Source: Candidatus Poribacteria bacterium
Lineage (GTDB): Bacteria; Poribacteria; WGA-4E; JAJDTR01
DNA length: 64,000 nucleotides
Direction of reading: 5' to 3'
NCBI GenBank assembly: GCA_028820655.1
Contig: JAPPIK010000015.1
Span: forward strand, 7,562-71,561
The notes under the pieces are model-generated. The model saw only the letters and a program-made list of their open reading frames with translations, was not told the DNA's origin and did no database searches. The translations under genes were made by a program, and so were the position numbers. This document shows positions 529-56,408 of this stretch, in pieces. How positions within the stretch are numbered: the first letter of the stretch is position 1; each line of letters begins with the position of its first letter.

Positions 529-647
529 GGGGCTCTCTATGGGATCTCTACCGCGTTCGCTATTCACTCACTTGCTGGATCTCTACCGCGTTCGCTATTC
601 ACTCACTTGCTGGATCTCTACCGCGCTTGATTTCCACTCGCTTGATC
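529..647 (+). repeat. Family A '35-bp patch' repeat, 3 tandem units (period 35) plus a 5' stutter
   Basis: ggatctctaccgcgttcgctattcactcacttgct at 542 and 577 identical; third variant at 612; followed by cctat(a). Confidence 0.9.
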
Positions 648-666
648 CTATAGGATTGTGCGTGAA

Positions 667-699
667 AGAAATCAAGTTTTCAAGAAAAAACTTGATTTC
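667..699. repeat. Palindromic REP-like element AGAAATCAAGTTTTCAAGAAAAAACTTGATTTC (also ~25848-25880, partial ~4260)
   Basis: GAAATCAAGTTTT / AAAACTTGATTTC inverted arms; recurs in the window. Confidence 0.75.
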
Positions 700-956
700 G
701 GTGGTTTCGGGAAAAAACTCGGCTTCTGCGCTTTCGAGATGAGAGCGCACAACTTGGATTAACTCTGAAATTGCGCTTGAAGCCTTAACCGGAGAGGCTT
801 GAAGCGCCACGGGAGTGCGCTAAAGTGCGCGCGTATTTTTCGGTCCACTTATTGAGGAACGCCCAGAAAGCGGGTTAGATAGTATTGATTCCGCTAGGAA
901 TATGCCTCGCTCAATCTGGTTCCCCATCCGGTCTTTACTAGTCTTAGTGAACGCTT

Positions 957-992
957 GGATCCCTATCGCACTCGCTGTCCACTCGCTTGATC
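957..992 (+). repeat. Family A patch unit
   Basis: ggatccctatcgcactcgctgtccactcgcttgatc. Confidence 0.85.
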
Positions 993-1344
993 ACCGCTTT
1001 TCTCTTGAAGCGATATAGTGAAATGAGATGCCAACGGAGCGTCGATTTAAGCGATGTGTTGACATTTCCTGAATTTGAGAATTCCTTTGCTGGAGCGGGT
1101 TCTCAGGATTCGTAGTGCCAACAAAATGCCAAAAAGAAAATAATGTTACACCGCCATGGCGGATGGTACCGTATAATATACCACACAACTGTTAAGTTTT
1201 CAATGTAAAAGTAACGAATTGCGGGCGGGAAGAAAAGTGGAAAATTTCAATCAAGGCACAGTTTTTCAAATCTAACCAAGGAGCGAAAAATGGGTGTCGT
1301 TCGATCATGCGCTATACAGATTGGGCTATGCTGGCGCTTGTAAA

Positions 1345-1545
1345 GGCTGGTGCGCGGGGAGTGGCCACATCACGATTCTATTGACATTGCACTCCGCTGG
1401 AGTGCAGGAATTAGGATCGTCGCCTTCTATAGACATTGGGGAATTCGATCGCAGTCACTTTTCGTTCCCTTGATCGCTCATTATTCATTCGCTTGATTGC
1501 AGTGCGCACCCTACAAGGAATGGTGGGCGGTGCCCACCCTACATA
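1345..1545 (+). repeat. Composite REP cluster: family B hairpin (GACATTGCACTCCGCTGGAGTGCA), family A units, GTAG/CTAC-type REPs
   Basis: 1354-1441 is close to 4068-4155; GCAGTGCGCACCCTAC and GGTGGGCGGTGCCCACCCTAC follow. Confidence 0.85.
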
Positions 1546-1560
1546 TGTGCAAAGGGGAGC

Positions 1561-2586
1561 TTACATAATCGCGGCGAAGGTTTGGCGGACCAACTCCTGC
1601 GTATCGAATTTGGCGCGCGCAGTGACGACAAGCCGTTCGGCTAGTTCATCTTGGTCGACGCTGGTGAGTTGACGCGCTCTACCCGCCCAGTCCGATCGAA
1701 TGCCATTGACGCCTCGATAAGCCCCAGCGATTGCTCCGCCCATGGTGGATATCGTGTCCGCATCGCGTCCAAAGTTGGCGCCGTAGGTCACCATTTTTTC
1801 CACATCCCCTTCGGCGAGACGGAAAAGCGCCAGCGTCATGGGAACCGTCTCCCGCGAGTCACAGGCAAGCCGACGGAAGAAATGCTCCTCGTTGGCGTAC
1901 ACAGTCTGCCGGAACGTCCCGTAATCCTTCGTCTCATCCGCAGTCCCCAATGCCTTGTTAATGAGCTCCAACATCTCCGCGCCGCTCACCGGCACGATGG
2001 CGTCGAGCGCGGCGTTAAGAATGGAGTCAACACTCGCCTCGAGATGGAACGCCGCCGCGACCGATGCGGCAATAGCGGCTGCGCCGTCTTGGCAAAATGA
2101 TACATCGTGGATATGGATGAGGCTTGCCAAGCTGTAGGCTTGCTCCGCCGCTTGCCGCGGGTTACAGGCATTGACAATCCCGACCGGCGCGATACACATG
2201 GCGGAACTTGAACTGGGCATGTTACCCAGCGCCGCCATTCGAGGGATACTGTGGCGGCGCAGTTTAACCGCCGTGTGGAGCACCGACTGGAAGAATTTGT
2301 TCACCTTGTCGCCGAAGATGTCGTCCCAACGGTCGAGCCATACCCTAGCCCAATCGTCATAGGTGGCGTATCCCTCCGTGCGGATAAGCGCCTCCGCCAA
2401 GAGGTATTTCATTACCGTGTCATCGGTGCCGTCGCAATCAAAATCCGCCACCCAGCCGAACCGCTCTTCGATTTCGGTATAGCGCATGTTCTCGGTCGGC
2501 GTCCCGATGGCGTCTCCGATCAAACCGCCTAGCAACGAGCCGAGCGTTTTTTGGAAATAGAGGGTGGTACGTAAAGTCCCAGTCAT
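1561..2586 (-). CDS. ADP-ribosylglycohydrolase family protein
   Basis: GDAIGTPTE, GTDDT and GRDADTISTMGGAIAGA motifs. Confidence 0.92.
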   Translation of the reverse strand: MTGTLRTTLYFQKTLGSLLGGLIGDAIGTPTENMRYTEIEERFGWVADFDCDGTDDTVMKYLLAEALIRTEGYATYDDWARVWLDRWDDIFGDKVNKFFQSVLHTAVKLRRHSIPRMAALGNMPSSSSAMCIAPVGIVNACNPRQAAEQAYSLASLIHIHDVSFCQDGAAAIAASVAAAFHLEASVDSILNAALDAIVPVSGAEMLELINKALGTADETKDYGTFRQTVYANEEHFFRRLACDSRETVPMTLALFRLAEGDVEKMVTYGANFGRDADTISTMGGAIAGAYRGVNGIRSDWAGRARQLTSVDQDELAERLVVTARAKFDTQELVRQTFAAIM

Positions 2587-2605
2587 CTCACTTAATCTCC
2601 CGTCG

Positions 2606-3784
2606 TCAATTCGATTCGTGGGGAAGAAATCCGGAGAACGGTCGCGCGGGCTGTTGTTCGACTTCCGGCAATGGCTCTATAATTCTCTGTTGATCCATCA
2701 ACGCCGCCTCAACCTTAGCAATCCTGGCGCTGAGTTCGGTCAGCGCCGCGTCCTGCTTCCGGATGACCTCTTGCTGCTCCTTGATGGACTCGACCAACAG
2801 GGGAACCAGACGCGCATAGTCCACCGATTTGGCGTCGCGCCCGTTTTGCTCGTATGCCACTACCTCGGGCACCACCTCGCCCACCTCCTCGGCAATCAGC
2901 CCGATGTCGTGCTTTCCATCTTCCCGCCAGTCGAAAGACACGCCGCGCAGTTGCTCCACCTTGTGCAACGCCCCTTCAATGGGTGTGATGTGCGTTTTCC
3001 ATCGTCTCGAGCTGTACGTCGTCCACCCATCAGCGATGGGGTCGGTCTCGGAGGAGCGCTTGACGGTGAGGATGTTCTCTGGGGGTCGGACGCCGATACC
3101 GATGTTGCCATTGGGGAATATGACGTGGGGGCGCGCGTTGTTCGGGACGATGCGCATCGCGTAGACAAGCTCGTTGATCTCCCCGTCGAGCGACATCAGG
3201 GACAGCGTACGAGGTTTCTGGGGCCGGCTGGGCTGCGCCCAGTTTGCACCGATGTTGAGATCGCGCACACCTTGCCCGTAAAAATCGTAATTCCATTGGA
3301 TGATATGGTTCGCCAACGGCACGGTGGTCTGGGTTCGCTGGAACGACATGAACTCATCCTGAATATCGAACTCGTGCCCGGGCTTACCGTTCCCGTTCTC
3401 CCACACCTCGAAGAACAGGGCGTTGTGGTCGGCGATAATCCGCCAGTAGCCGTAATCGGCTCGGTAGCTCTGTTGGTCGCTTTCCTTCAGCCACAGCGCC
3501 GGACCGCCGCTCTCCACCTGCAGCACGTTGCCGTAGATGTGCACCTTGTTTTCCGGCTCCGTCGTCCCGATGCCGAAATTGTCGTTCACTTCGACAATCC
3601 CGGTTGCGCTGATGGTGCCGGGGGTCGTGAATTTCGTTACATGATTGACGGAGGCTTTACCCACGGCCTCGACATTCTGCGGGTGGGCTTTTGAGTCATT
3701 ATTCGGAAACAGGAGGCCCGACAAAATGGCAAACGCCAAAAGCGTCCGAAATGTGATTCGGTGAATTTTAGTTTTTGTGTGCAT
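2606..3784 (-). CDS. Exported protein with C-terminal peptidase S74 intramolecular chaperone (tail-fibre-type) domain
   Basis: GIGTTEP/GNIGIG repeats, YSSRRWKTHI, LRGVSFDW, IGLIAEEV..VVPEVV, VDYARLVPLLVESIKEQQ coiled coil; start set at MHTKT (3784) because the longer ORF runs through repeats. Confidence 0.85.
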   Translation of the reverse strand: MHTKTKIHRITFRTLLAFAILSGLLFPNNDSKAHPQNVEAVGKASVNHVTKFTTPGTISATGIVEVNDNFGIGTTEPENKVHIYGNVLQVESGGPALWLKESDQQSYRADYGYWRIIADHNALFFEVWENGNGKPGHEFDIQDEFMSFQRTQTTVPLANHIIQWNYDFYGQGVRDLNIGANWAQPSRPQKPRTLSLMSLDGEINELVYAMRIVPNNARPHVIFPNGNIGIGVRPPENILTVKRSSETDPIADGWTTYSSRRWKTHITPIEGALHKVEQLRGVSFDWREDGKHDIGLIAEEVGEVVPEVVAYEQNGRDAKSVDYARLVPLLVESIKEQQEVIRKQDAALTELSARIAKVEAALMDQQRIIEPLPEVEQQPARPFSGFLPHESN

Positions 3785-3819
3785 TTTTCTTCTTTTGCCT
3801 TTCCGTTCAAGTAACATTC

Positions 3820-4240
3820 GACATTGCACTCCGCTGGAGTGCAGACGCGGGGTGGAATCGTGTTCTATTGACATTGCACTCCGCTGGAGTGCAGGAATTA
3901 GGTTCGTCGCCATCTACAGACAATGGGGATCTCTATCGCGGAATTTGGTATCGTGCGCGCTATTCGCTTGCTTTATCGCCGGTGCCGCCCTCAAAGGCTG
4001 GTGCGCAGTGCGCACCCTACATATGTACAAAGTCGAGCTTACCGCTGGATTTGCCAATCCAGCAGGAGCGGGGAGTGGGTGCATCACGATTCTATTGACA
4101 TTGCACTCCGCCGGAGTGCAGGAATTAGGTTCGTCGCCATCTACAAACATTGGGGATATCTATGAGATCTCTATGGGAATTCTATCGCGGTCGTAATTCG
4201 CTCCCTTGATTCCATCCTACAACTATTCGCTCGCTTAATC
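3820..4240 (+). repeat. Composite REP cluster (3 family B hairpins, family A units at ~3925-3975 and ~4152-4240, CTAC-type REP)
   Basis: Repeated gacattgcactccgc(t/c)ggagtgca; ggggatctctatcgc...cgcttg. Confidence 0.85.
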
Positions 4241-4395
4241 CTACGGAATTGTGCGAGATAGAAACCAAGTTTTCAAGAAATAGTATAAGAAACGTGTCTC
4301 CATGGCTGTTCTCCTTTCTTTCTCAATAGTGCTTTCCAACTTGCCCCATTAATTATACTATCCGCAAAGCGCTTAGGGGCAATATGCAAGTAGAA

Positions 4396-4459
4396 CATGC
4401 TGCCAGCTTGTTCCAATGCGCTCAATTGAGTCTTTGAACGAGCTAGCGGCACGTTCTAC
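4396..4459. repeat. Inverted pair of GTAG/CTAC REP-like hairpins
   Basis: gtagaacatgctgccagcttgttc ... gaacgagctagcggcacgttctac. Confidence 0.65.
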
Positions 4460-4536
4460 GAGATTAACTGAAAAACTCTTATTTGCAACTGATTAACAGC
4501 ATCAATCGACATACATGCTGAAAGTCTGCTAATTCT

Positions 4537-5442: not shown

Positions 5443-5974
5443 GATTAGCTCCTTCTATAACGCCGTTAGTTCTCTGTTTTCTGAATTGACGATTGTAGTG
5501 ACGATAAAGTGGTTAAAAGCGAATAAATCTCCAACCACTGTTGAAGATTCACAATTTATTCGCGCACCTGCGACACTTGATGGGTTGTTCGTTTGTCGTA
5601 AGCCACGAAGCGCGGTCCAATTGCAGGAATCGGCACTCTACTTCTTTGGCGGGATTGGGGGAGTTGTTTAGCCCATGACTTAAAGCGAGGTGGCGTTGCT
5701 TGGTCTCAATACGTTGCGCAGTTTATCCCGATCTCATCGGGGCTCCTACTCGACCGCCGCCGGTTGCGGAGCTTTGTTGTGATGGAAGAAGGGAGACTAT
5801 ATTCGCTTTTCTGCTTAAGCCAGCCCCATGTTGTTCTGAGCTTGCCAGCAGGGGAGACAGGATACTTATACCATTTCTCTAAAATGCGAGTGCATTAATT
5901 ACGCGGATCAAGTAAAGATTCTTGAGTGGAGGAAAGTAAGAAGCCTCGTCTCGGCGCAAAGCCAGCAGGGCAAG

Positions 5975-6120
5975 GGGATTTGCTATCGCCATCGCTATTC
6001 ACTCCGTTGATGGATCTCTATCGCACTCCTTGTTCAGTCGCTTGATTCCCGCCTACGATGAACGAGAACGATATGGTTAAGACATCTTATGCACTATTAT
6101 TCAAGCGAAATGGTATTAGC
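5975..6120 (+). repeat. Two family A units inside a REP hairpin plus ~110-bp segment duplicated at 8942-9050
   Basis: caggggcaagg[A][A]tcccgcctac; downstream aacgatatggttaa...ttattcaagcgaaa shared with ~8998-9050. Confidence 0.8.
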
Positions 6121-8929: not shown

Positions 8930-9170
8930 AGGCGGGGCAAGGGGATCTCTATCGCACTCCTTGTTCAGTCGCTTGATTCCCGCCTGCGGAATAGGGAAAC
9001 GATATGGTTAAGGCGTCAAATGCACCTTTATTCAAGCGAAACGGTATAAGCACTCGCTTGAGGGATTTCTATCGCAGGATTTTCTATCGCACTCGCTATT
9101 CACTCGTTTGATCTCATTATCCATTCGCTTGAGGGATTTCTATCGCGCTCATTATCCATTCGCTTGATCC
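8930..9170 (+). repeat. Family A in REP hairpin, TolB-gene tail copy, then 4-5 tandem/partial family A units
   Basis: aggcggggcaag[A]tcccgcct; 9051-9169 cactcgcttgagggatttctatcgc... ending gatcctac. Confidence 0.85.
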
Positions 9171-9447
9171 TACAAGATTAGCGATTATTAACAGATTTCC
9201 GTTCAACCCAACCTACGACTGGCCGATTGTCTTGCCTCGTTGTCTTCTCGCTCGTTCTGATTACTGGCATGTTGCTTCCTCCAGTGCAGGTGTATTGAAC
9301 TTCTATTTATTTTGGGGGCGTCAAATCGATTGTCTATTTTAGCGATTGGCACATTCCGGTTCACCACGTGTTGTTGGGGATTCTAGGTGTTGCCATCATC
9401 GTTTCGCTGATTTACCGCATTCCGCAAAGACAGTGGCTGCGAACGAG

Positions 9448-15300: not shown

Positions 15301-15906
15301 GCTTATCAACCGAGTTGGAACCATTGGAGGGCAATCAAACACAATCATAGCAAAGGCTTAGACGTGTTCAAGCACATGCAAGAATTCGCCGTATTCGGGC
15401 GAAAGTGAGGCCCTAAACTTTAGGCATTTTTGTAATGGTCAACCATATGTTGCGCACCTGCCGATAAATCGTCGGGCTACAATACGGCGCCCGATGAATC
15501 GGACTTCAAGCCCCAAGGGTGCTGTTCCGCAGCTCGATGGCTTCATCACCGATCTGTTTATTCGACTGTGCTATGACTCGAAACAAACTGCAGCGCAGCT
15601 TGTGCGAGGAAGCCTGAGCTGGTTTCACCATAGATGTTCCGCAATGTGCCTTTCGGCAGGTCTTTCTTCGGGTGATGAACAGTCACTCTGCTCGGTTTGT
15701 CGGGATGTTTGTATCGATGATGACTTCCACGAATGTGAACCCATATCCAACCTTACTCTCTTTACCCTTGCGATCACTTGGCGACTTGACATATTCCGAT
15801 AATACACACTGTACACATAGCATGTCAAGTGAGATTTCTTTGGCGTTCAAGGTGTTTGACAATCCGCTCAATCCGAGCTTATCGTTTCGCCAACCCAATT
15901 CGGAGA

Positions 15907-16125
15907 AGACTCGGAACAACTGTTGAATTGGCCTCCCATCTCGCACGAGCGTCACAGGACCATTGGTTTGATACTATGTTTGCGGGTCGATGCCGATGTA
16001 CCGGAAGAAGGAGGCCGCCAGGTCATCCGGCGTGACGCCTTCGTCGACAGGTGCCGAGGCGATGTCATCGGTTTCTCCGTTTGCTTGGCCGACTTGAACA
16101 TCTCCGCCTGCCATCAGTGGAAGGT
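15907..16125 (-). pseudogene. DUF1501-family C-terminal remnant
   Basis: LMAGGDVQVGQANGETDD...VTPDDLAASFFRYIGIDP...DGRPIQQLF, with stop and indel. Confidence 0.7.
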
Positions 16126-16561
16126 ACTTGACTAAATGACTTGGCTCTGCTATACTCATAAAAGTATTTCGATCTTTGACGAGGTACGAGGTTGCCATGT
16201 GCAATGCCTGTATGGCGTAAATCCTTGTGCGTAATCAGAAAACTAAAATTTCTGTCTAAAGGATGGGGGTAGGTACACTCTGATTGGCTGTTCCGTTAGA
16301 GTATATCTCCGCAAGGAGAAATTACGTTATAATCTCGATGACTGTCCCGAAAACTTTCGAGATCTGACTTGTTATCCATATGGAGCAAGGACATCGGGAG
16401 CTATGCGTAAGGAATCGCATGGATTGTGCATTTATATTTCCATATAAATTGCATCTTTTCCATGTAGAAAGGAATGGTCAATATTTACCGTTGTTACCTA
16501 GTTCATAATGCTCTACACAATTAAAAACCATCACGTAGTCATATTAAAGGAGGGTTTCGTG

Positions 16562-17347
16562 ATGAAGAGATTAGCTTTTCTTCTTGCAGCCGCATTGCTT
16601 TTAGCGGTTGTTCCCGTTGTTGGGTTCTCACTAGAGACAGATAACCATACGGTATTGCTCTTTTTGTTAGACGAACGCCATGTCGATGCTGATGGGGTTT
16701 GCTGCAATACTGTCAAAGACCTTTCAGGGTTAGGCAACGATGGAACGATTGAGGGCGAGATCAAAGTGGTTCCGGGGAAGATGAATAACGGTTACGAATT
16801 CGATGGGAATTCATATATCCAGGTTCCAAAATCCAGGGCGCTGGATATCACGCAACACATCACCGTTGAGGCATGGGCGAAACCGGAGCAGTTGGCCGGT
16901 GAGAATTTTATCCTCGATAAGAGGGCGGGTAATCCGCGGTTGGGATATGAGCTTTTCCAGGTTGACAACGTTTTTGGATTCATGATGGCGACCCCCGGAA
17001 AGAAAGCTGTTCTTAACCAAGACGAGCCCGCGCCTATTGGTACGTGGCAATACCATGCCGCTACCTATGACGGTAAGACGATGAAATATTATCGGGATGG
17101 TGAGTTCCTTAAGGAAACGGATCAGATTGGGGACCTTGGCGTTGAAAGTGACCTTTTCATCGGTATTGAAGGTTTCCCGGCTGGGACTAGACACCCCTAT
17201 AAGGGTGTTTTGGACAATATCCGTATTTCGAAGATCGCACGGACAGCAGACGAGATAAAGGAGACGTACAATAAAGTATCACGAATCGCCGCCGTGAATC
17301 CCGATTGGAAGCTCGCCCAAACTTGGGGCTTAATCAAAACCCAATAA
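16562..17347 (+). CDS. Secreted LamG-like jellyroll protein, copy 1
   Basis: AAGGAGG RBS, signal peptide, D.SG.GNDG, ITVEAW, WQYHAATYDG, GVLDNIRIS, C-terminal VNPDWKLAQTWGLIK. Confidence 0.92.
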   Translation: MKRLAFLLAAALLLAVVPVVGFSLETDNHTVLLFLLDERHVDADGVCCNTVKDLSGLGNDGTIEGEIKVVPGKMNNGYEFDGNSYIQVPKSRALDITQHITVEAWAKPEQLAGENFILDKRAGNPRLGYELFQVDNVFGFMMATPGKKAVLNQDEPAPIGTWQYHAATYDGKTMKYYRDGEFLKETDQIGDLGVESDLFIGIEGFPAGTRHPYKGVLDNIRISKIARTADEIKETYNKVSRIAAVNPDWKLAQTWGLIKTQ

Positions 17348-17396
17348 AGAATCCGGGGTAGTCCTTAAGATGTAAGGATGGGTAGTGCGCGGAGAA

Positions 17397-17615
17397 GACT
17401 CGGAACAACTGTTGAATTGGCCTCCCATCTCGCACGAGCGTCTCAGGACCATTGGTTTGATACTTTGTTTGCGGGTCGATGCCGGTGTTCCGGAAGAAGG
17501 ACGCCGCCAGGTCATCCGGCGTGAAGCCTTCGCCGACAGGTGCCGAGGCGATGTCATCGGTTTCTCCGATTGCTTGGCAGGCTTGAACATCTCCGCCTGC
17601 CATCAGTGGAAAATA
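17397..17615 (-). pseudogene. DUF1501-family C-terminal remnant, copy 2
   Basis: LMAGGDVQACQAIGETDD...TPDDLAASFF..GIDP...DGRPIQQLF. Confidence 0.7.
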
Positions 17616-18047
17616 CTTGACTAAATGACTTGGCTCTGCTATACTCATAAAAGTTTTTCGATCTCTGACAAGGTACGAGGTTGCCATGTGCAATACCTGT
17701 ATGGCGTAAAACCTTGTGCGTAATCGGAAAACTAAAATTTCTGTCTATATGGCGGAAATTATCTCTGATTGGCTGTTCCGTTAGAGTATATCTCCGCAAG
17801 GAGAAATTACGTTATGATCTCGATGGCTGTCCCGAAAACTTTCGAGATGAGACTTGATATCCATATGGAGCAAGAACATCGGGAACTATGCGTAAGGAAT
17901 CGCATGGATTGTGCATTTATATTTCCATATAAATTGCATCTATTTCCATGTAGAAAGGAACGGTCAATAATTACCGTTGTTACCTAGTTCATGATGCACT
18001 ACACAATTAAAAACCATCGCGTAGTTATATTAAAGGAGGGTTTCGTG

Positions 18048-18785
18048 ATGAAGAGATTAGCTTTTCTTCTTGCAGTCGCATTGCTTTTAGGGGTTACTCC
18101 CGTTGTTGGATTCTCAGAGACAGTATTGTACTTTCCGTGTGATGACATCCAAGGCGATACTGTCCAAGACCATTCAGGGGCAGGCAACGATGGAACGATT
18201 AACGGCCAGATCAATCTGGTCGCAGGGAAGTTCGGTAACGGTTACGAATTCGATGGGGCATCGATGATCCAGGTTCCAAAATCCGGGACGCTGGATATCA
18301 CGCAAAACATCACCATTGAGGCATGGACGCTGAAACACGAGGCGGGGGCCGAGGAGCAATTTGTCTTCGATAAGAGGGCGGGTGGTCCGCGGTTGGGATA
18401 TGAGTTTGTCCAGATTAACGACGCTTTTGGACCCCATTTTGTCACCCCGCCCGAAGTGAAAGCTATTATTTTGCAAGACGAGCCCGCGCCTCTTGGTACG
18501 TGGCAATACCATGCCGCTACCTATGACGGTAATAAGCTAGTATATTATCTGGATGGTCAGTTCCTTAAGGAAACGGATCAGAGTGGGGACCTTGGCGTTG
18601 AAAGTGACCTTTTCATCGGTGCGGAGAATGGGACCAAAGGGTTCTATGTGGGTGTTTTGGACAATCTCCGTATTTCGAATGTCGTACTGACAGAAGACGA
18701 GATAGCGCAGGCGTTCAATCAAGCTACCGCCGTGAATCCCCAATATAAGCTCGCCCAAACTTGGGGCTCAATCAAAACCCAATAA
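18048..18785 (+). CDS. Secreted LamG-like jellyroll protein, copy 2
   Basis: Same architecture; ends VNPQYKLAQTWGSIKTQ. Confidence 0.92.
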   Translation: MKRLAFLLAVALLLGVTPVVGFSETVLYFPCDDIQGDTVQDHSGAGNDGTINGQINLVAGKFGNGYEFDGASMIQVPKSGTLDITQNITIEAWTLKHEAGAEEQFVFDKRAGGPRLGYEFVQINDAFGPHFVTPPEVKAIILQDEPAPLGTWQYHAATYDGNKLVYYLDGQFLKETDQSGDLGVESDLFIGAENGTKGFYVGVLDNLRISNVVLTEDEIAQAFNQATAVNPQYKLAQTWGSIKTQ

Positions 18786-24800: not shown

Positions 24801-24892
24801 CGTAGACGGGAATCAAGCGAGCGGATAGCGAGTGATCAAGTGACCGAATAGGGAACGCGATAGAACTCCCATAGAGATCCCCTTGCCCCGTC
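24801..24892 (-). repeat. Family A (stutter + 2 parts) inside REP hairpin
   Basis: Minus strand gacggggcaag[gggatctctatgggagttctatcgc...cgcttgat]tcccgtctac. Confidence 0.85.
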
Positions 24893-25708: not shown

Positions 25709-25798
25709 GGTGCGGTTGGAAGGGATCTCTATGGGATCTCTATCGCGGTCACTAACCGTTCCCTTGATCACTCGCTATCCACTCGCTTGATCACCTAC
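25709..25798 (+). repeat. Family A inside REP GGTGCGGTTGGAA(ACCG)CACCTAC
   Basis: ggtgcggttggaa[A units]cacctac, right arm partly missing. Confidence 0.85.
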
Positions 25799-27584: not shown

Positions 27585-27955
27585 GGGATCAAGCGAGTGG
27601 ATAGATCAAGTGACTGAATAAGGAACGCGATAGAAATCCAGCAAGTGAGTGAATAGCGAACGATCAAGAGAATGAATAATGACTGTGGGAGCGATTTCCG
27701 AATCGCGATAGCCCTCTGTAGGAGCGATCTCCAGGTCGCGATTCAGCAGTCGTAGGGTGGGCACCGCCCACCAGCCTCTAAAAGCCCCGGAGGGGATCAA
27801 ACGAGCGGATAGCGAGTGATCAAGTGACCGGATAGGATCAAACGAGTGAATAACGAGTGCGATAGAAATCTTCGTGCGATAGAAATCCCATAGAGATCTT
27901 GAAGGTGTATGGAAACGCCAAGACCCCGTGTTCCAAAGCCCCAGCGGGGCGAAAG
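27585..27955 (-). repeat. REP cluster with two family A arrays on the minus strand
   Basis: gatcaagcgagtggatagatc...; GTAGGAGCGATCTCC, GTAGGGTGGGCACCGCCCACC and CCCC.GGGG hairpins. Confidence 0.85.
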
Positions 27956-33109: not shown

Positions 33110-33665
33110 AGATTGGAAGGGGGGAAAGTAGTGGCCAGTGACCAGTGGGGAAGGGAAGAAGACAGGAAGAATGGAAGGGGGAAATGCAGTGACCAGTGCC
33201 TAGTGGCCAGTGGGAACGAGGGAAAACGGGGAGACCGGTAACGGGACAGGAGGAGGGATTGTCTGAATGACGGATTACGGGGATCTCTACCGCGCTCGCT
33301 ATTCACTCGCTTGCTGGATTACACGGATTGGGAAGGATCGGCGGCGGCGAGGGGTGGAACCGAGGATTTGATGGCGGTTTGTCCTGCAGATTAGCCGGAC
33401 ACACGGCACTCCGCTGGAGTGAAAACCTTCTACGACGGAACACCTTCTCAAAGCCTGTCATATATCAAAAGACGAGTGTAACTTGCTGAATGAGTTATAC
33501 CGACAGGGATAATGGCGTGCTATCAAGTAACACTTATTCAGAGCTAGCCATAGAACGAAATATGAGTGACTCTTGATGATGCACTATACACATTGGGGAT
33601 CTCTATCGCATTCACTACTCGCTCATTTGATCTATCCGCTCAGTTGATCCCATGCCGGGGCTTAA
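33110..33665 (+). repeat. Repeat cluster: purine-rich short tandem motifs, family A in GGATTACAC repeat, family B, family A in CTATACAC..GGGGCT element
   Basis: agtggccagtgaccagt; cggattac[A]ggattacacggatt; ctatacacatt[A]cccatgccggggct. Confidence 0.8.
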
Positions 33666-34419: not shown

Positions 34420-34830
34420 CCTCTGACATTGCACTCCTCTGGAGTGAAAACCCTTCTACGAAGGAACACCTTCTCAAAGCCTGTCATAGATTCAAAGACG
34501 TAGTGTTACTTGCTGAAAGAATCATTCCGAGAGGGATAATGGGGTGCTACGAAGTAACACTCGACATTGCCGGGATCTCTATCGCGGTCGTAATCCACTC
34601 CCTTGATCCGCTGGAGTGCAGGAATTGGGTTCGTCGCCTTTTTCGGAAATTTGGGATCTCTATCGCAGAATTTGCTATCGCGCGCACAATTCGCTTGCTT
34701 GATCTCTATATTTAGTCGCTTGATTGCGCCTTACAAGGAATGGTGGGCAGGGGATTCGCTATCGCGCTCGCTAATCACTCGTTTGATTTCACCCTACAAC
34801 TTATCAGTCGCTTGATCCGCCGGAGTGCAT
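34420..34830 (+). repeat. Dense REP cluster with four family A insertions
   Basis: gacattgc[A]tccgctggagtgca; ggtgggcag[A]caccctac; others at ~34653-34725 and ~34800-34817. Confidence 0.88.
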
Positions 34831-36134: not shown

Positions 36135-36350
36135 GTCACCTACCTGTGGGATCTCTACCGCGCTCGCTATCCACTCGCTTGCTGGATCTCTATCGCACTC
36201 GTTATCCACTCGCTTGATCCCCGCTGGGGCTTGGTGCACGGGGCTTTGGGCGTTTCTATACACCTTCAAGATCTCTATCGCACTCACTATCCGTTCGCTT
36301 GATCCCCTCTGGGGCTTTTAGGGGCCGGTGCGCAGTGCGCACCCTACAAA
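36135..36350 (+). repeat. REP cluster with family A insertions (2 units + 1 unit)
   Basis: acctacctgt[A][A]ccccgctggggct; ctatacacctt[A]cccctctggggct; GGTGCGCAGTGCGCACCCTAC intact. Confidence 0.88.
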
Positions 36351-45754: not shown

Positions 45755-45826
45755 TAGCGCTACGGGGAATCGAACCCCGGTTTGATGGCTGAGAACCACC
45801 CGTCCTAACCCCTAGACGATAGCGCC
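45755..45826 (-). tRNA. tRNA-Glu (CTC)
   Basis: GGCGCTATCGTCTAG...GGTGG TT CTC AG CCATC...GGTTCGATTCC...TAGCGCTA; CCA not encoded. Confidence 0.95.
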
Positions 45827-45830
45827 CAAT

Positions 45831-45904
45831 TGGCTGCCCGGGAAGGACTCGAACCTTCGCAACATGGTCCAGAGCCATGCGTCCTGCCATTAGACGACCG
45901 GGCA
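45831..45904 (-). tRNA. tRNA-Gln (CTG)
   Basis: TGCCCGGTCGTCTAATGG...CATGG CT CTG GA CCATG...GGTTCGAGTCC...CCGGGCAGCCA. Confidence 0.95.
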
Positions 45905-46104: not shown

Positions 46105-46166
46105 TCTATACACCTTCAGGATCTCTATCGCGCTCACTATCCGTTCACTTGATCCCCGCTGGGACT
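46105..46166 (+). repeat. Family A inside CTATACACC..CCCCGCTGGG element
   Basis: ctatacaccttca[ggatctctatcgcgctcactatccgttcacttgat]ccccgctgggact. Confidence 0.85.
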
Positions 46167-48784: not shown

Positions 48785-49025
48785 CCTCGTAAAACGCAAG
48801 AAAATTACGACAGCGAATGACGCAGTGATAGAAAGTCGCCTCTCCCTTACTGTGTTCCTCACTGAACGCCCTGCAAATCGGGGCAATCCATTGGATAAAA
48901 CGAGTGAAAAATGAGTACGATAGTAGATCCTACGCGATAGCTTGTCCTGATTTACACGCTCTATCGGCTTCGGCATTTCGTTGCGTGGATTTTTACTGAA
49001 CATCAAGCGAACGAATAATGAGCCG

Positions 49026-49074
49026 GATTTGCTATCGCCTTCGCTTTTCGCTCAGTTGAGCGATAGAGGTCCCC
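49026..49074. repeat. Family A unit fused head-on to an inverted partial unit
   Basis: gatttgctatcgccttcgcttttcgctcagttga + gcgatagaggtcccc (reverse complement ggggacctctatcgc). Confidence 0.7.
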
Positions 49075-50396: not shown

Positions 50397-50490
50397 AGGA
50401 CAGCCCAAGTTGCTACTTACAGGATTTCAGACAGGCATCATCGTTATTTCTTTTGAAATGAGTCCATTAATCGCGGAGATTTTGTGAGGC

Positions 50491-50590
50491 AAGGGATTTG
50501 ATATGGGAACCCTATCGCGCACGTTAGCCATTCGCTTGTTCTGTCGGTAGTCTGCGCATCACATGCACAATCTAACAGATTGTGCTACAA
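50491..50590 (+). repeat. Family A with stutter plus REP GCACAATCTAACAGATTGTGCTAC
   Basis: gggatttgatatgggaaccctatcgc...cgcttg; REP repeated at ~53993-54016. Confidence 0.75.
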
Positions 50591-50612
50591 TGGTGGCAAC
50601 GTAGGTTAGATT

Positions 50613-52670
50613 TCACTGCAAATGCTTATCCATCCATTCGACAATACGGTTCAGCCGGTGTATACGCAAGTCCGGAGGACCGCTGCGGGACAAATCGTGG
50701 CTCGCCTCCGGCGGATAACGAACGAACTCAACCTCGCGTTTGAGCCGTTTCAGGGCGATAAACAACTGTTCAGCCTGCTCAATCGGGCATCGCAGATCGC
50801 CCTCGCTGTGGAGAATTAGCAGGGGCGTACTTATATTTTGAACGTGGCTCAACGGTGACAGTTTCCAGTAGAACGTCGGATCTTCCCACACCTCCGACGA
50901 GAAGTAGGTGCGGTCGCCCATCAGTTGCACATCGCACGTTCCCGCCATGCTTATCATGTTTGTGACGCTGCGCTGTGTCACGGCGGCTTTGAACCGGTCG
51001 GTATGGCTGACAATCCAATTCGTCATGAATCCGCCGTAGCTGCCTCCGGTTACGCCCAACCGTTCGGAATCGACGTAGCCTTGGTCGATGACATAATCAA
51101 CCGCCGCCATGAGATCGTCGAAGTCCGGACCGCCCCAATCCCCTCGAATTGCAGCCGCATACGTCTCTCCGTAACCTTTACTGCCGCGCGGGTTGGTGTA
51201 AATTACGACATAGCCTCGGGCTGCAAGGAACTGGAATTCATGAAAAAAGGCGTTGCCGTATTGTGTGTGGGGACCTCCATGGATCTCAAGAATCAACGGA
51301 TATTTCTGTTGGGGGTCGAAATCGGGAGGTTTGACAATCCAGCCATGAATCTTTCCCCCATCGTACGTGTCAAACCAAATCTCCTCGGCGTCGGACAGAG
51401 CCAATTCGGCATTCCACTCACGATTCACGTCAGTCAGCCGCACCGGTGTGTTCCCCTCGGCATCCCCAATAGGGAGCAGATAAACATCCCCGGGTTCAGT
51501 GAAACTCCCGATTTGTAGCACAAGCCTGGTCGTCTCGCTATCCGCGGAGAATGCGCACACATCGATTGCGCCTTGCGTCAACTGTCGAGGCTCGCCGCCG
51601 TTGCGATTCACGGCGTAGAGATGGCAACTTCCTTGATCGCTAACGAGGAAAAACAGACGGGCGCCGTCCGCACTCCAAATTAGGGATACCGCACCGACGT
51701 CGGATTCGGACGTATCGCCAAGCGTGTGGTGCCCGACGGGCCGGTCAATGCCGACGGTCAGGTCTTGCGCCTCCCCACTTTCCACCGATACGACCCGTAG
51801 ATGCGGATCGGACACACCCCAGATTTCGTCCGGACGGTCGTGTCCGATGCAAGCAATTTCCGCGCCATCGGGGGACCAAACAGGGTTTTGCATGTGCCCG
51901 GACTGTTTCGTCACTCGCCGCGCTGCCCCGCCATCGGAAGGAATCAGCCACAGATCCTGATAACCTGGCGTCAGGTCCCCATCCTCGGTGCGATTTGAAA
52001 CGAAAGCGATGGTTCGTCCATCGGGGGACCATGCGGGGGAGCGGTCGTCGTAATCCTCGGAGGTGAGTTGATTCACGTGCCCCGTTTCTACGCATACGGT
52101 CTGTAAATGCCACCGTTCGCCGCCGTTGTATCCGGCGCCGTCCTCCCGGTAGCCGGCTCGGCGGATGACGCGGGGTGGGTAAGACCCGTGTTCCTCTTCG
52201 CGGGCGTCGCGCTCCTCTTTCCGATCCGCGGGAGGAATTGCGCGGAACGCGAAGGCAATCTTCGTCCCGTCGGGCGACCACGCCAGCGAAGCTAGGCTCC
52301 CTTCCTCCAGTTGCCCCAACTGTTCCGCTTCTCCGCCATCCACGGGAATGAGCCAAATCTGGGAAGAATCGCTCCGGTCGGAGATAAAGGCGATACGCCG
52401 TCCGTCGGGTGACCAACGCGGCGAGATGTCGCCGTAATCGCCCACGGTGAAACGACGAGGTTCGCCGCCGTCTGTGGGCACAAGCCAGAGATTGGAGAAA
52501 TATCTGTTCTTTTCCGGGTTTATCCACCGCAAGACAAATGCCACGAGTGTCCCGTCAGGCGATAGTTGGGGTCCGGAAACAAAGCGCATAGTGAGAAGAT
52601 CTTCAGCGCTTATCTTGCGGGGTTTTGTTGCCATCATGACCCTCTCTTCTGTGTGTTTGCTCTCTGACAT
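50613..52670 (-). CDS. S9 family peptidase (acylaminoacyl/dipeptidyl peptidase)
   Basis: WSPDG propeller repeats, IHGGP, GGSYGG, D-LRCP, SHDLSR; alternative start 52637. Confidence 0.95.
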   Translation of the reverse strand: MSESKHTEERVMMATKPRKISAEDLLTMRFVSGPQLSPDGTLVAFVLRWINPEKNRYFSNLWLVPTDGGEPRRFTVGDYGDISPRWSPDGRRIAFISDRSDSSQIWLIPVDGGEAEQLGQLEEGSLASLAWSPDGTKIAFAFRAIPPADRKEERDAREEEHGSYPPRVIRRAGYREDGAGYNGGERWHLQTVCVETGHVNQLTSEDYDDRSPAWSPDGRTIAFVSNRTEDGDLTPGYQDLWLIPSDGGAARRVTKQSGHMQNPVWSPDGAEIACIGHDRPDEIWGVSDPHLRVVSVESGEAQDLTVGIDRPVGHHTLGDTSESDVGAVSLIWSADGARLFFLVSDQGSCHLYAVNRNGGEPRQLTQGAIDVCAFSADSETTRLVLQIGSFTEPGDVYLLPIGDAEGNTPVRLTDVNREWNAELALSDAEEIWFDTYDGGKIHGWIVKPPDFDPQQKYPLILEIHGGPHTQYGNAFFHEFQFLAARGYVVIYTNPRGSKGYGETYAAAIRGDWGGPDFDDLMAAVDYVIDQGYVDSERLGVTGGSYGGFMTNWIVSHTDRFKAAVTQRSVTNMISMAGTCDVQLMGDRTYFSSEVWEDPTFYWKLSPLSHVQNISTPLLILHSEGDLRCPIEQAEQLFIALKRLKREVEFVRYPPEASHDLSRSGPPDLRIHRLNRIVEWMDKHLQ

Positions 52671-52986
52671 TCCATCGCCGAGAGTTTCATATGTCCTTCG
52701 TGTGTATGGATGATAACATATGCGAGGGTACAAATAAAGCATGGCTAACACGTTGGTTGGGTTGAACGTCGCCGGTGAATACTACCGAGCTTTCCAGGTA
52801 GCTATCGAGGGTTAAACTCGCCTGGCGTCTCCCGAATCTAGTGGAACCCATCTTGATACTCATCTTCCGCATAATAGTCTCGTGTAATCTCGAATTTTCA
52901 CATCCTAGATTTTAGGGCATATCTCCACGAACGGGCAAAAATCACCTAGATACTTCCGCGAGTCCGATCGATTAACCGATTTTCCC

Positions 52987-53725
52987 TATCAAGTAACACT
53001 TTTTCAAAACCAATCTTAGAGAAGGAAATCTGAACCACAATCTGTTAGATTGTGATCCGCAAGCTAACAGTTTGCGGTACAAGAGTGTTGCTTGCTGAAT
53101 GAATTATTCCGACAGGGATAATGGGGCGCGCTCAAGTAACACTCGACATTGCACTCCTCTATCAAGTAACACTTTTTCAAAACCAATCTTAGAGAAGGAA
53201 ATCTGTACCACAATCTGTTAGATTGTGATCCGCAAACTAACAGTTTACGGTACAAGCGTGTTGGTTGCTGAATGAATTATTCCGACAGGGTTGATGGCGT
53301 GCTATCAAGTAACACTCGACATTGCACTCCGCTGGAGTGCAGACGCGAGGAGTAATCGTGTACTATTGACATTTCACTCCGCTGGAGTGAAAACCAGACC
53401 ACGAAGGAACACTTTTACGGCCAGTCATAGAGCGAAAAATTAATGTGACCCGCTGATGGATTGTGATCGCAAACTAACAGTTTGCGGTACAAGAGTGTTG
53501 GTTGCTGAATGAATTATTCCGACAGGGATAATGGGGCGCGCTCAAGTAACACTCGACATTGCACTCCTCTGGAGTGCAGACGCGAGGAGGAATCGTGTTC
53601 TATTGACATCTCGCTCCGCCGGAGTGAAAAACATGCCGGTAAGGAACGTTATTGCAGAGCCTGTCACGGAGCGAAGAAGGCGTGTTACTTGCTGAAAGAA
53701 TTATACCGACAGGGATAATGGCACG
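52987..53725 (+). repeat. Nested ~172-bp tandem repeats built from REP-like hairpins and family B
   Basis: 52987-53158 is close to 53159-53330, partial third copy ~53460-53580; related to 33400-33535 and 34425-34570. Confidence 0.85.
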
Positions 53726-54061
53726 CTGTCAATCATGATGCGGGATAGATCGCCTGAGAAATTAAACTTTTGGGTGCTCAATAATGCGGAAGATAAGTAA
53801 CGATTGACGCATGGTTTAATTCGGATGTTGGGTTTCACTAAGTCTTTTTATTCAATAGCATGGTTTAGAAACAGAACGATGATTAGCATTGGGAAGCGAT
53901 CATGTTTAAACGTCCAACCCAACCTACACTGCTGTGGATTCTCTTGTTCCACACCCCGCAATCTGTTATACTACGCGAGTTGCAATTTACAAGCACAATC
54001 TAACAGATTGTGCTACAAAGGCGGCAACATAACTTATACAAATTCAAAGCGGAGAAGAGTA

Positions 54062-54673
54062 TTGGCAGATAGAAAATCAACAAATATTACGTGGTATGAG
54101 GCGACAATTACGCGGGAAGACAGAGAACAGCTTCTCGATCAAAAAGGCTGTGTGCTCTGGTTCACCGGGCTGTCCGCTTCCGGCAAATCCACCCTGGCGC
54201 ACGAGGTGGAAAACGCACTGCACGGACGCGGTCGGCTGACCTACGTGCTCGACGGCGATAACGTCCGCCACGGACTGAACAATAACCTCGGATTCTCGCC
54301 GGAGGATCGGGAGGAGAATATTCGCCGCATCGGAGAGGTATCGAAACTGTTCGCGGATTCCGGCGTCATCGTGATAACGGCGTTCATCTCGCCCTATCGC
54401 GGCGACCGGGACAAAGCGCGGGAATTGGTTGAAGACGGTCGTTTTTTTGAGGTTTTTGTCGACTGTCCGTTGGAGGTGTGTGAGGAACGGGATCCGAAGG
54501 GTTTGTACAAGAAAGCGCGGGCGGGCGAAATCCCGGAGTTTACGGGAATCAGCGCGCCCTACGAAGAACCGGACAGCCCCGAACTCACGGTGAACACGGC
54601 AGAGCTAACACTTGAACAGTGCGGTGAGAGGGTTGTCAAGATTCTTGAAGACAGGGGATTGATTCCCGGATAA
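54062..54673 (+). CDS. cysC: Adenylyl-sulfate kinase
   Basis: [43 protein letters not shown]; TTG start after GGAG. Confidence 0.96.
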
Positions 54674-54718
54674 TCAACGCCTCAAACTCTACGGAAACAG
54701 GGGCGGCAATCGTAGCCC

Positions 54719-55348
54719 CTACCATTTCTGAAATAGCGTCACATTCTTTCGCGGAAACTCCACCTTCCATCCATACCGTCCTGCGATCCATACCATGGTT
54801 TCACGCGTATAGAAACACACATGCGTCGGTTCACGGTGGTACCACCAACCCGCGAAATTCACTTCCGGCTCCAACATCTCGGTCATGATCCCTAGCCAAC
54901 CGCCGCTTCGCAGCAGTGCGTCCAGTCGTTGAAACTCCTTTCCCGGTCGATAGAAATGTTCGACCGTCTCCGTGCACGTGATGAAATCGAATTCGCGTTC
55001 AAGCGGATCGGGGCAGGGCGCGAAGAAGGGGTCGTAGAGGCTCATCCGGAATCCCTGCTCCTCAAGCATCACGGAGAGCGTCGGTCCCGGTCCCGAGCCG
55101 AAGTCGAGTCCTTCGGCGTCGGGGGCCAACTTGGGAATAAGGTGGGCGCTCAAACGGCTGAGGAACTCACGGTAGCGTGCGTCGTCAGGACTGTTCTCGT
55201 GGAGTTTATAGCGGGCAAGTTCGGCATCCCCGTCCAAATAATGTTCCGATGACAGGAAGGTTAGTTGGCAGGCACGGCAGCGCCAGTAGTGCTTTTCGTC
55301 AACGGTTGCGAAATCTCGGACGTGCTCCGAGAGGCAGAGCGGGCACAT
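54719..55348 (-). CDS. Class I SAM methyltransferase with N-terminal zinc ribbon
   Basis: CPLC...CRAC, LDFGSGPGP, YDPFF, EPTHVCFY. Confidence 0.92.
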   Translation of the reverse strand: MCPLCLSEHVRDFATVDEKHYWRCRACQLTFLSSEHYLDGDAELARYKLHENSPDDARYREFLSRLSAHLIPKLAPDAEGLDFGSGPGPTLSVMLEEQGFRMSLYDPFFAPCPDPLEREFDFITCTETVEHFYRPGKEFQRLDALLRSGGWLGIMTEMLEPEVNFAGWWYHREPTHVCFYTRETMVWIAGRYGWKVEFPRKNVTLFQKW

Positions 55349-55350
55349 GT

Positions 55351-56085
55351 CTAACCGAGGTTGCCGATTTGCGTTTGAACCCAAAGCGCGACTTTGGTCA
55401 CCATAACGCTGGTTGCCTCGTCGCTAAAAACATGGTCAGCACCCGCAAGTTCAATCAACTCTTTTGGCTGGTTGGCGATCTCTAATATCTCGCGCGATTC
55501 AGCTATCGGCACAACGTCATCCTCGGTACCGTGAACGAGCAGCCAAGGAACCGTAATCCGCGAGGCGCGATTCACCACGCTGTCGATCTGTGCCATGTCA
55601 TCCATATAGGCACTTGAAAGCGGACATTCCGGTTTGTCCCACATTAAACCTTCATCGGGCGTTTCGCCGCCGAATTCGGTTTGAGCGAAGGTCTTGGTGT
55701 GAACCATGCCGGCTAGTGAAACCAGCAACTTAATCCGACTGTCACGACTCGCGCGCAGAACGCCTACGGCGCCGCCCATGCTGTGACCGGCGTAGCAGAC
55801 CGAGTAGCCGCTCAAAGCATCGAGTACGGACCCGAGATCCTCAACTTCCTTCGAGATTGTCGAGTCAACAAATCTCCCTTCGGAGTCTCCGTTTCCCGAG
55901 AAGGAGAAGCGCAGCACGGGGATACCGGAAGCGGCCAACCCGTTCGCCAGTGCAACGACAAAAGGACGGTCCTTGTTGCCGGTGACGCCGTGCCCCAGCA
56001 CCACAATGTGCTTGGAATCTCCTTCCCCTTGATGAAAACTGTAATCAAGTCGTTCGCCATGTGAATTTCTTATATCACCGAACAT
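55351..56085 (-). CDS. Alpha/beta hydrolase
   Basis: HG, FSGNGDSEG, GHSMGG, HGTEDDVV, GADH. Confidence 0.92.
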   Translation of the reverse strand: MFGDIRNSHGERLDYSFHQGEGDSKHIVVLGHGVTGNKDRPFVVALANGLAASGIPVLRFSFSGNGDSEGRFVDSTISKEVEDLGSVLDALSGYSVCYAGHSMGGAVGVLRASRDSRIKLLVSLAGMVHTKTFAQTEFGGETPDEGLMWDKPECPLSSAYMDDMAQIDSVVNRASRITVPWLLVHGTEDDVVPIAESREILEIANQPKELIELAGADHVFSDEATSVMVTKVALWVQTQIGNLG

Positions 56086-56343
56086 AGATTTCCTCGAATC
56101 GAAAATTATTGCAGATAGAAACAACCGACGCTTTGGCTATCGCCGGTTACGTGTGATTAGATGTTGGGTTTCGCTAGACATGTGAGGTTTCTCGCAAAAC
56201 CGAACACCGAAAACGAAAGGAATTGCCCGGTGTGCTTCACGGTTGCCGTTCAACCCAACCTACGTACCTGAGTATACGCTAGGGTATGTTGACATTTATG
56301 TAAGGTGTGTCCATAATTCGCCCATAAGTCTCTATTTTAGAGG

Positions 56344-56408
56344 AGAGGTAAGATCTCTACCGGTCTTCTATCGCGCTCGCGTTCCACTCGCTTGATCCCA
56401 ACCTCTAC
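56344..56408 (+). repeat. Family A inside REP AGAGGT..CCCAACCTCTAC
   Basis: agaggtaa[gatctctaccggtcttctatcgcgctcgcgttccactcgcttgat]cccaacctctac. Confidence 0.82.

Follow-up and report, generated by a model that had tools for sequence, protein, structure and literature searches.

A 37-nt structured repeat that interrupts REP hairpins in Poribacteria and behaves like a very small mobile element

The 64,000-nt stretch of DNA analyzed here (the window, C52:7562-71561) belongs to a Poribacteria genome of 5.88 Mb (61 contigs, 51% G+C, 95%-complete) and carries between its genes many copies of a short repeat, hereafter the unit, which had been proposed from the sequence alone to be an undescribed 35-bp patch written into the hairpins of repetitive extragenic palindromes (REPs). 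The nearest relatives of a 1049-amino-acid protein encoded in the window, 82–88% identical, are found in metagenome-assembled genomes of Candidatus Poribacteria, and sponge metagenome contigs from three different studies contain the window region. A profile built from 20 window copies and used at a cut-off of E ≤ 0.01 matched 32 units in 22 clusters in the window and 1071 units in the whole genome (1036 ungapped, 854 distinct sequences). The copies are thus real and every locus named in the original prediction checks out, its figure of about 24 loci being an undercount. The 36-letter consensus given there had 4 window matches at up to 3 mismatches, with 0 expected from 100 shuffles, and a grouping of the window repeats yielded a same-strand family of 26 copies (D1, 40 nt) and an opposite-strand family of 7 (D20). 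All window units are intergenic, as had been stated; genome-wide the statement does not hold, as 183 of the 1071 units lie wholly within open reading frames (ORFs) of at least 120 amino acids. Nevertheless, this number is small given that such ORFs make up 82% of the genome, and 842 units overlap none of them. The copy-number spectrum of the 29-nt unit cores (418 distinct cores among 809 units) consists of a few abundant variants and 327 singletons.

Along the plus strand, on which the features lie unless stated otherwise, the first cluster (541–647) is an array of three units with a 35-nt period, of a TTGCT/CTACC variant, in which the first two units are identical and which folds on the opposite strand. 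It is followed by a single unit (957–992), by a unit with a second hairpin module at 23-nt spacing that abuts the 3' REP half GCAGTGCGCACCCTAC (1439–1497), by an intact host-type REP, GGTGGGC-GGT-GCCCACC-CTAC (1522–1542), by a degenerate nested unit composed of a unit head and then a second unit (3926–3976; family D18), by another intact host-type REP, GGTGCGC-AGT-GCGCACC-CTAC (4000–4020), and by a unit with two extra 11-nt heads before it, starting at 4152 (4175–4211). The two intact REPs are relatives of interrupted ones, of the kind that the original prediction had listed. Two units at 5977–6047 lie inside the REP GGCGGGGCAAG-ATGC-CCCGCCTAC, the orthologous site of which in genome G001 is an intact REP, and a single unit with the same REP type and junction is found at 8942–8978. 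The interval 9062–9172 contains a unit nested in a unit (inner unit 9077–9112; family D18) and a further unit at 9133–9169. A nested unit pair on the minus strand lies inside the REP GGGGCAAG...CCCGTCTAC (24811–24870), a unit nested in a unit with the module order head-head-CGC-hairpin-hairpin lies inside the REP GGTGCGGTTGGAA...ACCTAC (25722–25794), and two minus-strand clusters of nested or tandem units (27604–27662 and 27795–27870, within 27604–27870; D20) have intact REPs between them.

Further along the window, a TTGCT-variant unit is located inside a short repeat of GGATTAC type (33280–33316), a unit is followed by a second hairpin module (33596–33632), another unit splits the hairpin GACATTGCACTCCGCTGGAGTGCA (34572–34608), a unit is nested in a unit (34653–34723, inner unit 34668–34704; family D18) and one lies inside the REP GGTGGGCAG...CACCCTAC (34752–34787). 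A TTGCT-variant unit and a canonical unit occupy 36148–36219, where the orthologous site of G001 has only CG, and the unit at 36270–36304 is resident in a longer repeat, CTATACACCTTC...CCCCTCTGGGGC, at which G001 has a unit too. The same host type contains the unit at 46119–46154, beside two adjacent tRNA genes (45755–45904, minus strand), the unit being about 215 nt upstream on their strand. The remaining window units are a degenerate one on the minus strand (48890–48923; D20), one whose place is also occupied in genome G003 (49026–49059), another degenerate one (50505–50538) and one inside the hairpin AGAGGT...AACCTCTAC (56362–56397), where G001 has a longer array.

The length of the unit is 35–37 nt; instead of the predicted 35 bp, the position table shows 37 nt, GGGATCTCTATCGC-NN-TC-NN-TATyC-NN-TC-NN-TTGATy, with the first three letters conserved at 57–79% only. 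On the strand in which it was originally read (the written strand), the unit is composed of an 11-nt head, GGGATCTCTAT, the trinucleotide CGC, a 17-nt hairpin with variable covarying stems and the tail TTGATy. Its 3' border is sharp, conservation being at background within one letter, and on the 5' side background is reached within three letters; since both C and T occur at position 37, the placement of the border is ambiguous by 1 nt. The unit starts with GGGATC and ends with TTGATy, and there are no terminal inverted repeats beyond GATC.

To call the unit non-palindromic, as had been done, is misleading, since it holds a covarying hairpin on the opposite strand. Among the 854 distinct copies the variable dinucleotides covary, the pairs with the highest mutual information being 19-27, 16-30, and 15-31. 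Positions 15 and 31 form a standard pair on the complement in 777 of the 854 copies versus 577 on the written strand, positions 20 and 26 in 805 versus 482, and the common A.C and C.A combinations of the written strand are G.U on the complement. The hairpin therefore folds on the complement of the written strand, hereafter the folded strand. The fold consists of a 3-pair outer stem (AUC/GAU), an AA/GC internal loop, and an inner part with two pairs, tandem G.A/A.G, two further pairs and a 5-nt loop, G-R-A-U-A. On the folded strand GATCAA precedes the hairpin and GCGATAGAGATCCC comes after it, no GTAG or CGTC tag is present at the hairpin foot, and GGTAG is read only in the CTACC variant, 3' of the hairpin. 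In a covariation test with 84 units from five genomes (80 distinct rows, 500 shuffles, slid controls), 97.0% of the cells were paired versus 81.3% in the shuffles, changes on both sides occurred in 107 cells versus 19.1, and the covariation score was 0.564 versus 0.237, with slid controls at or below 0.114. None of the 500 shuffles attained the observed pairing, double-change or covariation values, and RNAalifold, run unguided, recovered the same four inner pairs. Covariation of this sort cannot distinguish RNA from single-stranded DNA.

Units are hosted by GTAG/CTAC-tagged REP hairpins with the stems GGTGCGC, GGTGGGC, GGCGGGGC, GGTGCGGT, and GCGACC/GCGATT, by the hairpins GCACTCC-GC-TGGAGTGC and GCCCC-TCT-GGGGC, by a few short heptamer-like repeats and by units themselves. 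That the unit interrupts other repeats, chiefly such REP hairpins, had been predicted and is borne out: among 500 solo units (units without an adjoining unit module), CTAC is found 0–9 nt downstream of 188, compared to 124 of 4000 random intergenic sites, and on the other side of only 6. The unit thus has a fixed orientation towards the REP, its folded strand being the one that carries GTAG. A REP split by a unit usually keeps five or six stem pairs, and the proposed disabling of REPs by the unit is not supported. For 495 of 809 full-length units the flanking 9-mers are found joined elsewhere in the genome with 0–14 nt between them, and in a strict test, for which the solo units with exact 9+9 flanks at their borders were used, 165 of the 500 had an empty counterpart in the same genome, corresponding to 91 distinct flank pairs. 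This number of flank pairs also argues that the unit is not merely a piece of one longer element. The comparison of empty and filled sites agrees with the proposal that a few host bases are lost, with no target duplication and no terminal inverted repeats. The replaced host piece is 2–5 nt long in 86 of the 91 flank pairs and ends in GC in 57 of 89 and in AC in 9; if the unit is taken as 36 nt, the pieces end in G. The replaced length varies between 2 and 5 nt, with less variation at the right junction. The letters that precede the unit show no conservation (at most 48% at positions -3 to 0), homology at bare-REP junctions extends over 7–11 nt per side, and one host type shows an identical junction while the units in it differ by compensatory stem changes. 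Two other ways to parse the junctions were rejected: retention of a host GC as the CGC of the unit, because hosts with a replaced CAC still have CGC or CGT units, and a circularly permuted element recombining at a GC core, because the predicted module order does not fit. Arrays of heptamers are not the main host, as 3 of the 1071 units are within 30 nt of one of the 29 period-7 arrays of the genome; a few TTGCT-type units are seen inside the heptamer-like repeats AGTGGTC/AGTGATT and GGATTAC (e.g., on contigs C37 and C45).

Units with the order head-head-CGC-hairpin-hairpin are a unit inserted into a unit with replacement of the outer CGC. This class comprises 59 units versus about 19 expected if extra heads (108) and extra hairpins (142) occurred independently among 809 units, and as the inner and outer hairpins have unrelated stems it does not represent a duplication. 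Nesting of this kind explains both the 23-nt spacing of hairpin modules and the repeated 11-nt heads. The variant unit CTACCGC...TTGCT recurs with a 35-nt period in tandem arrays such as that at 541–647. Units ending in TTGCT are directly followed by GG in 96 of 105 cases, compared to 37 of 827 for units ending in TTGAT, and by the head of a next unit in 59 of 105 versus 8 of 827. Either the TTGCT variant has its own target, before GG, or its altered 3' end stays unprocessed and the variant travels with the next unit.

The original prediction had offered as one of two origins that a fixed template is copied into breaks at hairpins. Formulated in more detail, a hairpin on single-stranded DNA would be cut and trimmed, extended on an RNA by a reverse transcriptase or on a unit as template by a DNA polymerase, and ligated. 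The loss of 2–5 host bases together with the more constant right junction does look like trimming of one end, the sites are at hairpins, and template slippage could generate reiterated heads and 35-nt arrays. Most reiterated heads and tails are, however, accounted for by nesting, given the unrelated inner and outer stems; copying from arbitrary donor copies should often bring along flanking sequence whereas the 3' border is sharp; and the fixed orientation towards the REP and the end-specific behavior of the variant suggest that the unit itself is recognized. A search with the Pfam profile RVT_1 gave no match in the 95%-complete genome, which speaks against the involvement of a reverse transcriptase, and we consider a repair patch quite unlikely. 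The other origin, a minimal element parasitic on REPs, was the better half of that proposal.

Comparison with related genomes revealed empty orthologous sites, as had been anticipated, at two loci of G001, which represents a sister species. The G001 region corresponding to 5977–6047 runs into the same flanking genes and has an intact REP with ATGC instead of the two units, and in place of the two units at 36148–36219 G001 has CG, adjoining an orthologous gene. At copies of the first of these sites there are no units in G001 and G008, one in G007 and two in the window; the unit of G007 has different stems, and the junction is constant across the genomes. Relatives differ by 55–109 nt at three other arrays. 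As the orthology scan of four relatives found both anchors for 20 array-genome pairs only, most flanks being repeats, the polymorphic loci represent a lower bound; contigs from four sequencing runs all break at units and neither confirm nor deny polymorphism at the level of units. Identical 29-nt unit cores occur in many unrelated contexts, the commonest in 29 copies in 17 different 7+7 flank pairs. All these observations are better accounted for by active copies that were inserted precisely and repeatedly than by one old insertion followed by drift.

The REP at 5977 is located in an element of about 252 nt (5866–6117) with the terminal inverted repeats ATACCATTTC...GAAATGGTAT and the GGCGGGGC-type REP in its middle. 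This element is missing, with CG instead, from contigs of sequencing runs X3 and X4 (joint 5865 to 6118), is inverted in G004, and has other copies of about 80% identity both elsewhere in this genome and in relatives. It has the appearance of a polymorphic miniature inverted-repeat transposable element (MITE).

Such observations also bear on the possibility that the unit does not move at all and that old insertions were spread within REP- or MITE-like composites by a REP-associated tyrosine transposase (RAYT) or another transposase, gene conversion shuffling the filled and empty states. Some filled hosts are indeed near-identical over 30-nt flanks and clearly belong to a longer repeat that was copied as such, the polymorphic REP at 5977 sits in a 252-nt repeat that is itself present or absent among strains, and RAYT genes flanked by REPs of the GGCGGGGC type exist. 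Spread within composites does not easily account for 91 flank pairs with empty sites and for one core in up to 17 unrelated flank pairs, for units within units and within non-REP hosts such as the heptamer-like repeats, for a sharp 3' border without donor flank, or for a homology of just 7–11 nt on each side at bare REPs. We therefore regard an immobile unit as unlikely.

The distribution of the unit in the phylum was determined with a 29-letter pattern, one mismatch being allowed, in 176 genomes, and a reversed-pattern control had zero matches everywhere. In the genus of the window (g1) all 10 genomes have between 600 and 1303 matches each, several of them being single-contig assemblies, and in a genus of another family (g4) all 4 genomes have 206–212 matches each. 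Seven other genomes have at most 19 matches each and the remaining 155 of the 176 have none. Units of g4 differ in the head (GAAGA- or AAAA-CTATCGC) and in the dominant stems (CT..AG, CC..GG), keep the same frame, CTATCGC-hairpin-TTGATC, and again occur in REP-like hosts. Units shared in position between the two genera were not detected: of 30 loci of the g4 genome G012, 5 had syntenic flanks in the window's genome, 3 of these being free of units, and the sole candidate for a shared position did not align. The stray units of fragmented bins, located on one to four small contigs in G057, G125, and G146 and on six contigs in G010, three of which have imperfect matches, are likely mis-binned contigs or relics; for the contigs of G057, G125, and G146, mis-binning from co-occurring unit-bearing Poribacteria is suggested. 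With respect to a transfer vector, the pattern had no match in IMG/VR, and six single matches in JGI metagenome contigs are about what chance would give for 21 fixed bases.

The same data address whether units might be a product of assembly, of a library adapter or of chimeras. Units are found at certain contig ends (e.g., C34:112, C52:146, and C29:56), although breaks at repeats are expected in short-read assemblies. With 854 distinct sequences that show compensatory changes, hundreds of matches in each of nine other g1 assemblies, and the region present in contigs from three independent studies, an artefact is scarcely credible, and neither adapters nor chimeras can be the source of the units.

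The folded strand is the sense strand of both co-oriented neighboring genes for 353 of 516 units, whereas intact GTAG hairpins have no such bias (94 of 178). Where the neighbors conflict with the local gene majority, units agree with the neighbors in 72 cases and with the majority in 50. Such an orientation would suggest a role of transcription rather than replication, whether by exposure of the displaced non-template strand or by selection acting on the RNA. An RNA-library run (X15) contains the window region, its contigs being uninformative about transcription. A bias of this kind, together with the conserved unpaired bases and covarying stems with G.U on the sense strand, would also be expected if the unit were a selected cis-acting, protein-binding hairpin of RNA or DNA, for example in message stability, processing or termination, and were abundant because of its function and not by selfish spread. 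Such a function gives no account of the arrival of units in REP arms or in other units, nor of the polymorphism between 0, 1, and 2 copies at one site; moreover, a third of the units are antisense to their neighbors, and Rfam 15 at gathering score matched two tRNAs as the only hits in the window and no unit. As a replacement for mobility a cis-acting role is very unlikely, but the two do not compete, and a mobile unit could have such a role.

From these results the unit is probably a very small, non-autonomous, strand-specific mobile module that moves independently of its hosts. Copies are written in one orientation at or beside hairpins, which include REPs with at least five types of stem, two further hairpin repeats and other units (at their CGC), and each copy takes the place of 2–5 host bases, mostly with G or GC at their end, without any duplication. 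The TTGCT variant sits directly before GG, very often where the head of another unit follows, which gives rise to tandem arrays. Unpaired conserved bases, the sharp 3' edge, strand specificity and the lack of inverted ends and of a duplication argue for recognition of the folded strand by a protein, which might cut and rejoin a folded single strand as HUH/Y1 enzymes do and would be supplied in trans. More tentatively, a machinery that recognizes the folded 35–37-nt strand and writes it at or beside hairpins (G or GC sites) in exchange for 2–5 bases could perhaps represent a new, cut-and-replace kind of transposition.

Genes for candidate enzymes were looked for in the genome. Y1_Tnp had seven matches, three of which form a RAYT-like clade, and IS110 had two; as had been predicted for the window, none of them is on its contig C52. 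Clustering of 25 Y1 proteins from five genomes did not reveal a clade limited to unit-bearing genera. Units are located within 1.5 kb of four of the seven Y1_Tnp genes, with about 0.6 expected from density alone. The repeats that flank RAYT-like genes are GTAG REPs: L134 in G001 and L124 in G021 have GTAG-GCGGGGCA-TCT-TGCCCCGC-type (GGCGGGGC-type) REPs on both sides, an arrangement that is a classic REPtron for one host REP family. Both IS110-family genes (C31:72263-73468 and C23:363-1769) have units about 50–200 nt from the ends of their ORFs, a closeness best explained by shared REP-rich neighborhoods. In four of seven other copies of the C31 gene (G004, G006, G124, and G009) in-frame stop codons are present.

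Several results weigh against an independently mobile unit or against the way in which it is proposed to move. The RAYT, other Y1 and IS110 genes do not track the units over the 176 genomes: the RAYT-like clade is present in 115 genomes, with no member detected in G007, a genome with 890 unit matches; a second Y1 clade, represented on C28, is present in 37 genomes including just 2 of the 10 of g1; and the C31 IS110-family gene is present in 7, which include 6 of 10 in g1 and 0 of 4 in g4. Thus no enzyme among RVT_1, Y1, and IS110 follows the unit, searches for TnpB, primase-polymerases and tyrosine recombinases not being part of the analysis. The units would then depend either on a widespread enzyme, such as a RAYT, working on a sequence particular to the lineage, or on an enzyme of a family outside those searched. 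HUH transposons such as IS608 are not known to lose 2–5 target bases, and the link of the units to GC skew is weak, the folded strand being on the G-rich strand for 178 of 420 units. With respect to movement, the two orthologous differences in G001 are not polarised by an outgroup, the copies of G007 and G008 may be paralogous, as parts of a 252-nt repeat, so that some of the polymorphism between 0, 1, and 2 units could stem from gene conversion among the copies of this repeat, and some units are resident in longer repeats, for example six copies that are near-identical over 30-nt flanks. Finally, the hairpin alone is not unusually stable (z-scores of -1.75 to +0.31 in six folds); this modest stability, combined with the unpaired letters that do not vary, would suggest that the hairpin is bound by a partner and does not act as a helix by itself.

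The closest known kind of repeat appears to be the small dispersed repeats (SDRs) of cyanobacteria, and as a best reading the unit is a minute mobile repeat of that sort. Eight of them, SDR1-8, of 21–27 nt, are reported from Nostoc punctiforme and other Nostocaceae, and SDRs are said to occur in heptamer repeat hosts as well. In works that cite Elhai et al. (2008, Genome Res 18:1484), the SDRs of Nostocaceae are described as very small, structured, nested, inside other repeats and confined to Nostocaceae, and SDR5 as placed between the third and fourth letters of HIP1, GCGATCGC. In the genome studied here GCGATCGC is not enriched (126 copies versus about 90 expected), which together with its Poribacteria relatives rules out a cyanobacterial source of the window. 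By these descriptions, the unit resembles SDRs in being small, dispersed, intergenic, of compensatory structure, inserted in repeats and in itself, limited to a narrow clade and without a named enzyme, and it differs in its 35–37 nt, in its occurrence in Poribacteria, in its REP hosts and in the replacement of 2–5 bases instead of a clean split, the comparison being one of descriptions. The designation as an undescribed system was in this respect too strong, given what is described of the SDRs. REP targeting, few-base replacement and an occurrence of such repeats in Poribacteria were not found in the literature searched, which included papers that cite the SDR work and work on REPs in Poribacteria.

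With REPs and REPINs the unit shares its hundreds of short structured extragenic copies, a strand-specific hairpin and tolerance of G.T/G.U pairs, and as an imperfect palindrome of 20–40 nt that is extragenic and of high copy number (37 nt, 1071 copies) it resembles a REP. Unlike REPs, it has no GTAG/CGTC foot tag, its stem consists of 2+2 pairs around tandem G.A in addition to the 3-pair outer stem, units sit inside REPs and have no fixed arrangement at RAYT genes, and the RAYT clade is found in 115 of 176 genomes compared to two genera for the unit. For REPs, too, stem subfamilies with compensatory changes are reported, and REPs themselves can sit inside other palindromes (Di Nocera et al., 2013, section 7). 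The unit is without the terminal inverted repeats and target-site duplication of MITEs. Elements of the IS200/IS605 family and their miniature derivatives have no inverted ends, cause no duplication and are strand-specific, folded single-stranded DNA being recognized; the unit is similar in having neither inverted ends nor a duplication and in its strand specificity. These elements carry a hairpin near each end and insert 3' of a fixed tetra- or pentanucleotide, are not known to remove target bases, and are strongly lagging-strand-biased, unlike the units; the unit has one hairpin and no fixed upstream motif and loses 2–5 host bases. IS1397, and elements of the IS110/IS1111 family such as IS621, also target REPs but are gene-bearing and a kilobase or more in size, whereas the unit, which likewise prefers REP hairpins, has 37 nt. 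The bacterial interspersed mosaic elements (BIMEs) of E. coli are intergenic mosaics in which REPs alternate with fixed linker motifs lying between the REPs. The unit, by contrast, is inserted into REP stem-loops and into other units, and orthologous sites differ in whether they contain it.

Other repeats in the window include tandem copies, at 52986–53568, of a 173-nt repeat (families D4, D6, and D10) that comprises the hairpin ACATTGCACTCCGCTGGAGTGCAG and a 69-nt module recurring at 33475 and 34502, and a tandem duplication of about 1.3 kb (15901–18620; 84–96% identity) that spans the ORFs at 16508–17347 and 17991–18785.

Taken together, the unit ranks by its behavior among the smallest mobile DNA elements known, while we infer its mechanism. 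To our knowledge, mobile repeats of very small size were so far reported from a single cyanobacterial family, and their mode of movement has been an open question since 2008. The Poribacteria provide a second, unrelated lineage and a clearer case, with about 1000 copies per genome, a defined folded strand and defined targets, a small footprint and an end variant. As 14 genomes with the family can be compared to about 155 related ones in which the pattern was not found, the question of the enzyme is approachable by phyletic profiling, and the many empty and filled sites are ready substrates for biochemical tests. For those who annotate or assemble genomes of sponge symbionts, the unit is a repeat to beware of, since it breaks short-read contigs. 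The unit also shows that an element of 37 nt can colonize REPs, which are mostly regarded as parasites or as target sites for insertion sequences of kilobase size. If the proposed mode of movement is true, it would represent cut-and-replace transposition without a known enzyme family, and SDRs may move by the same process, which would then be a general and overlooked rewriting of bacterial intergenic DNA.

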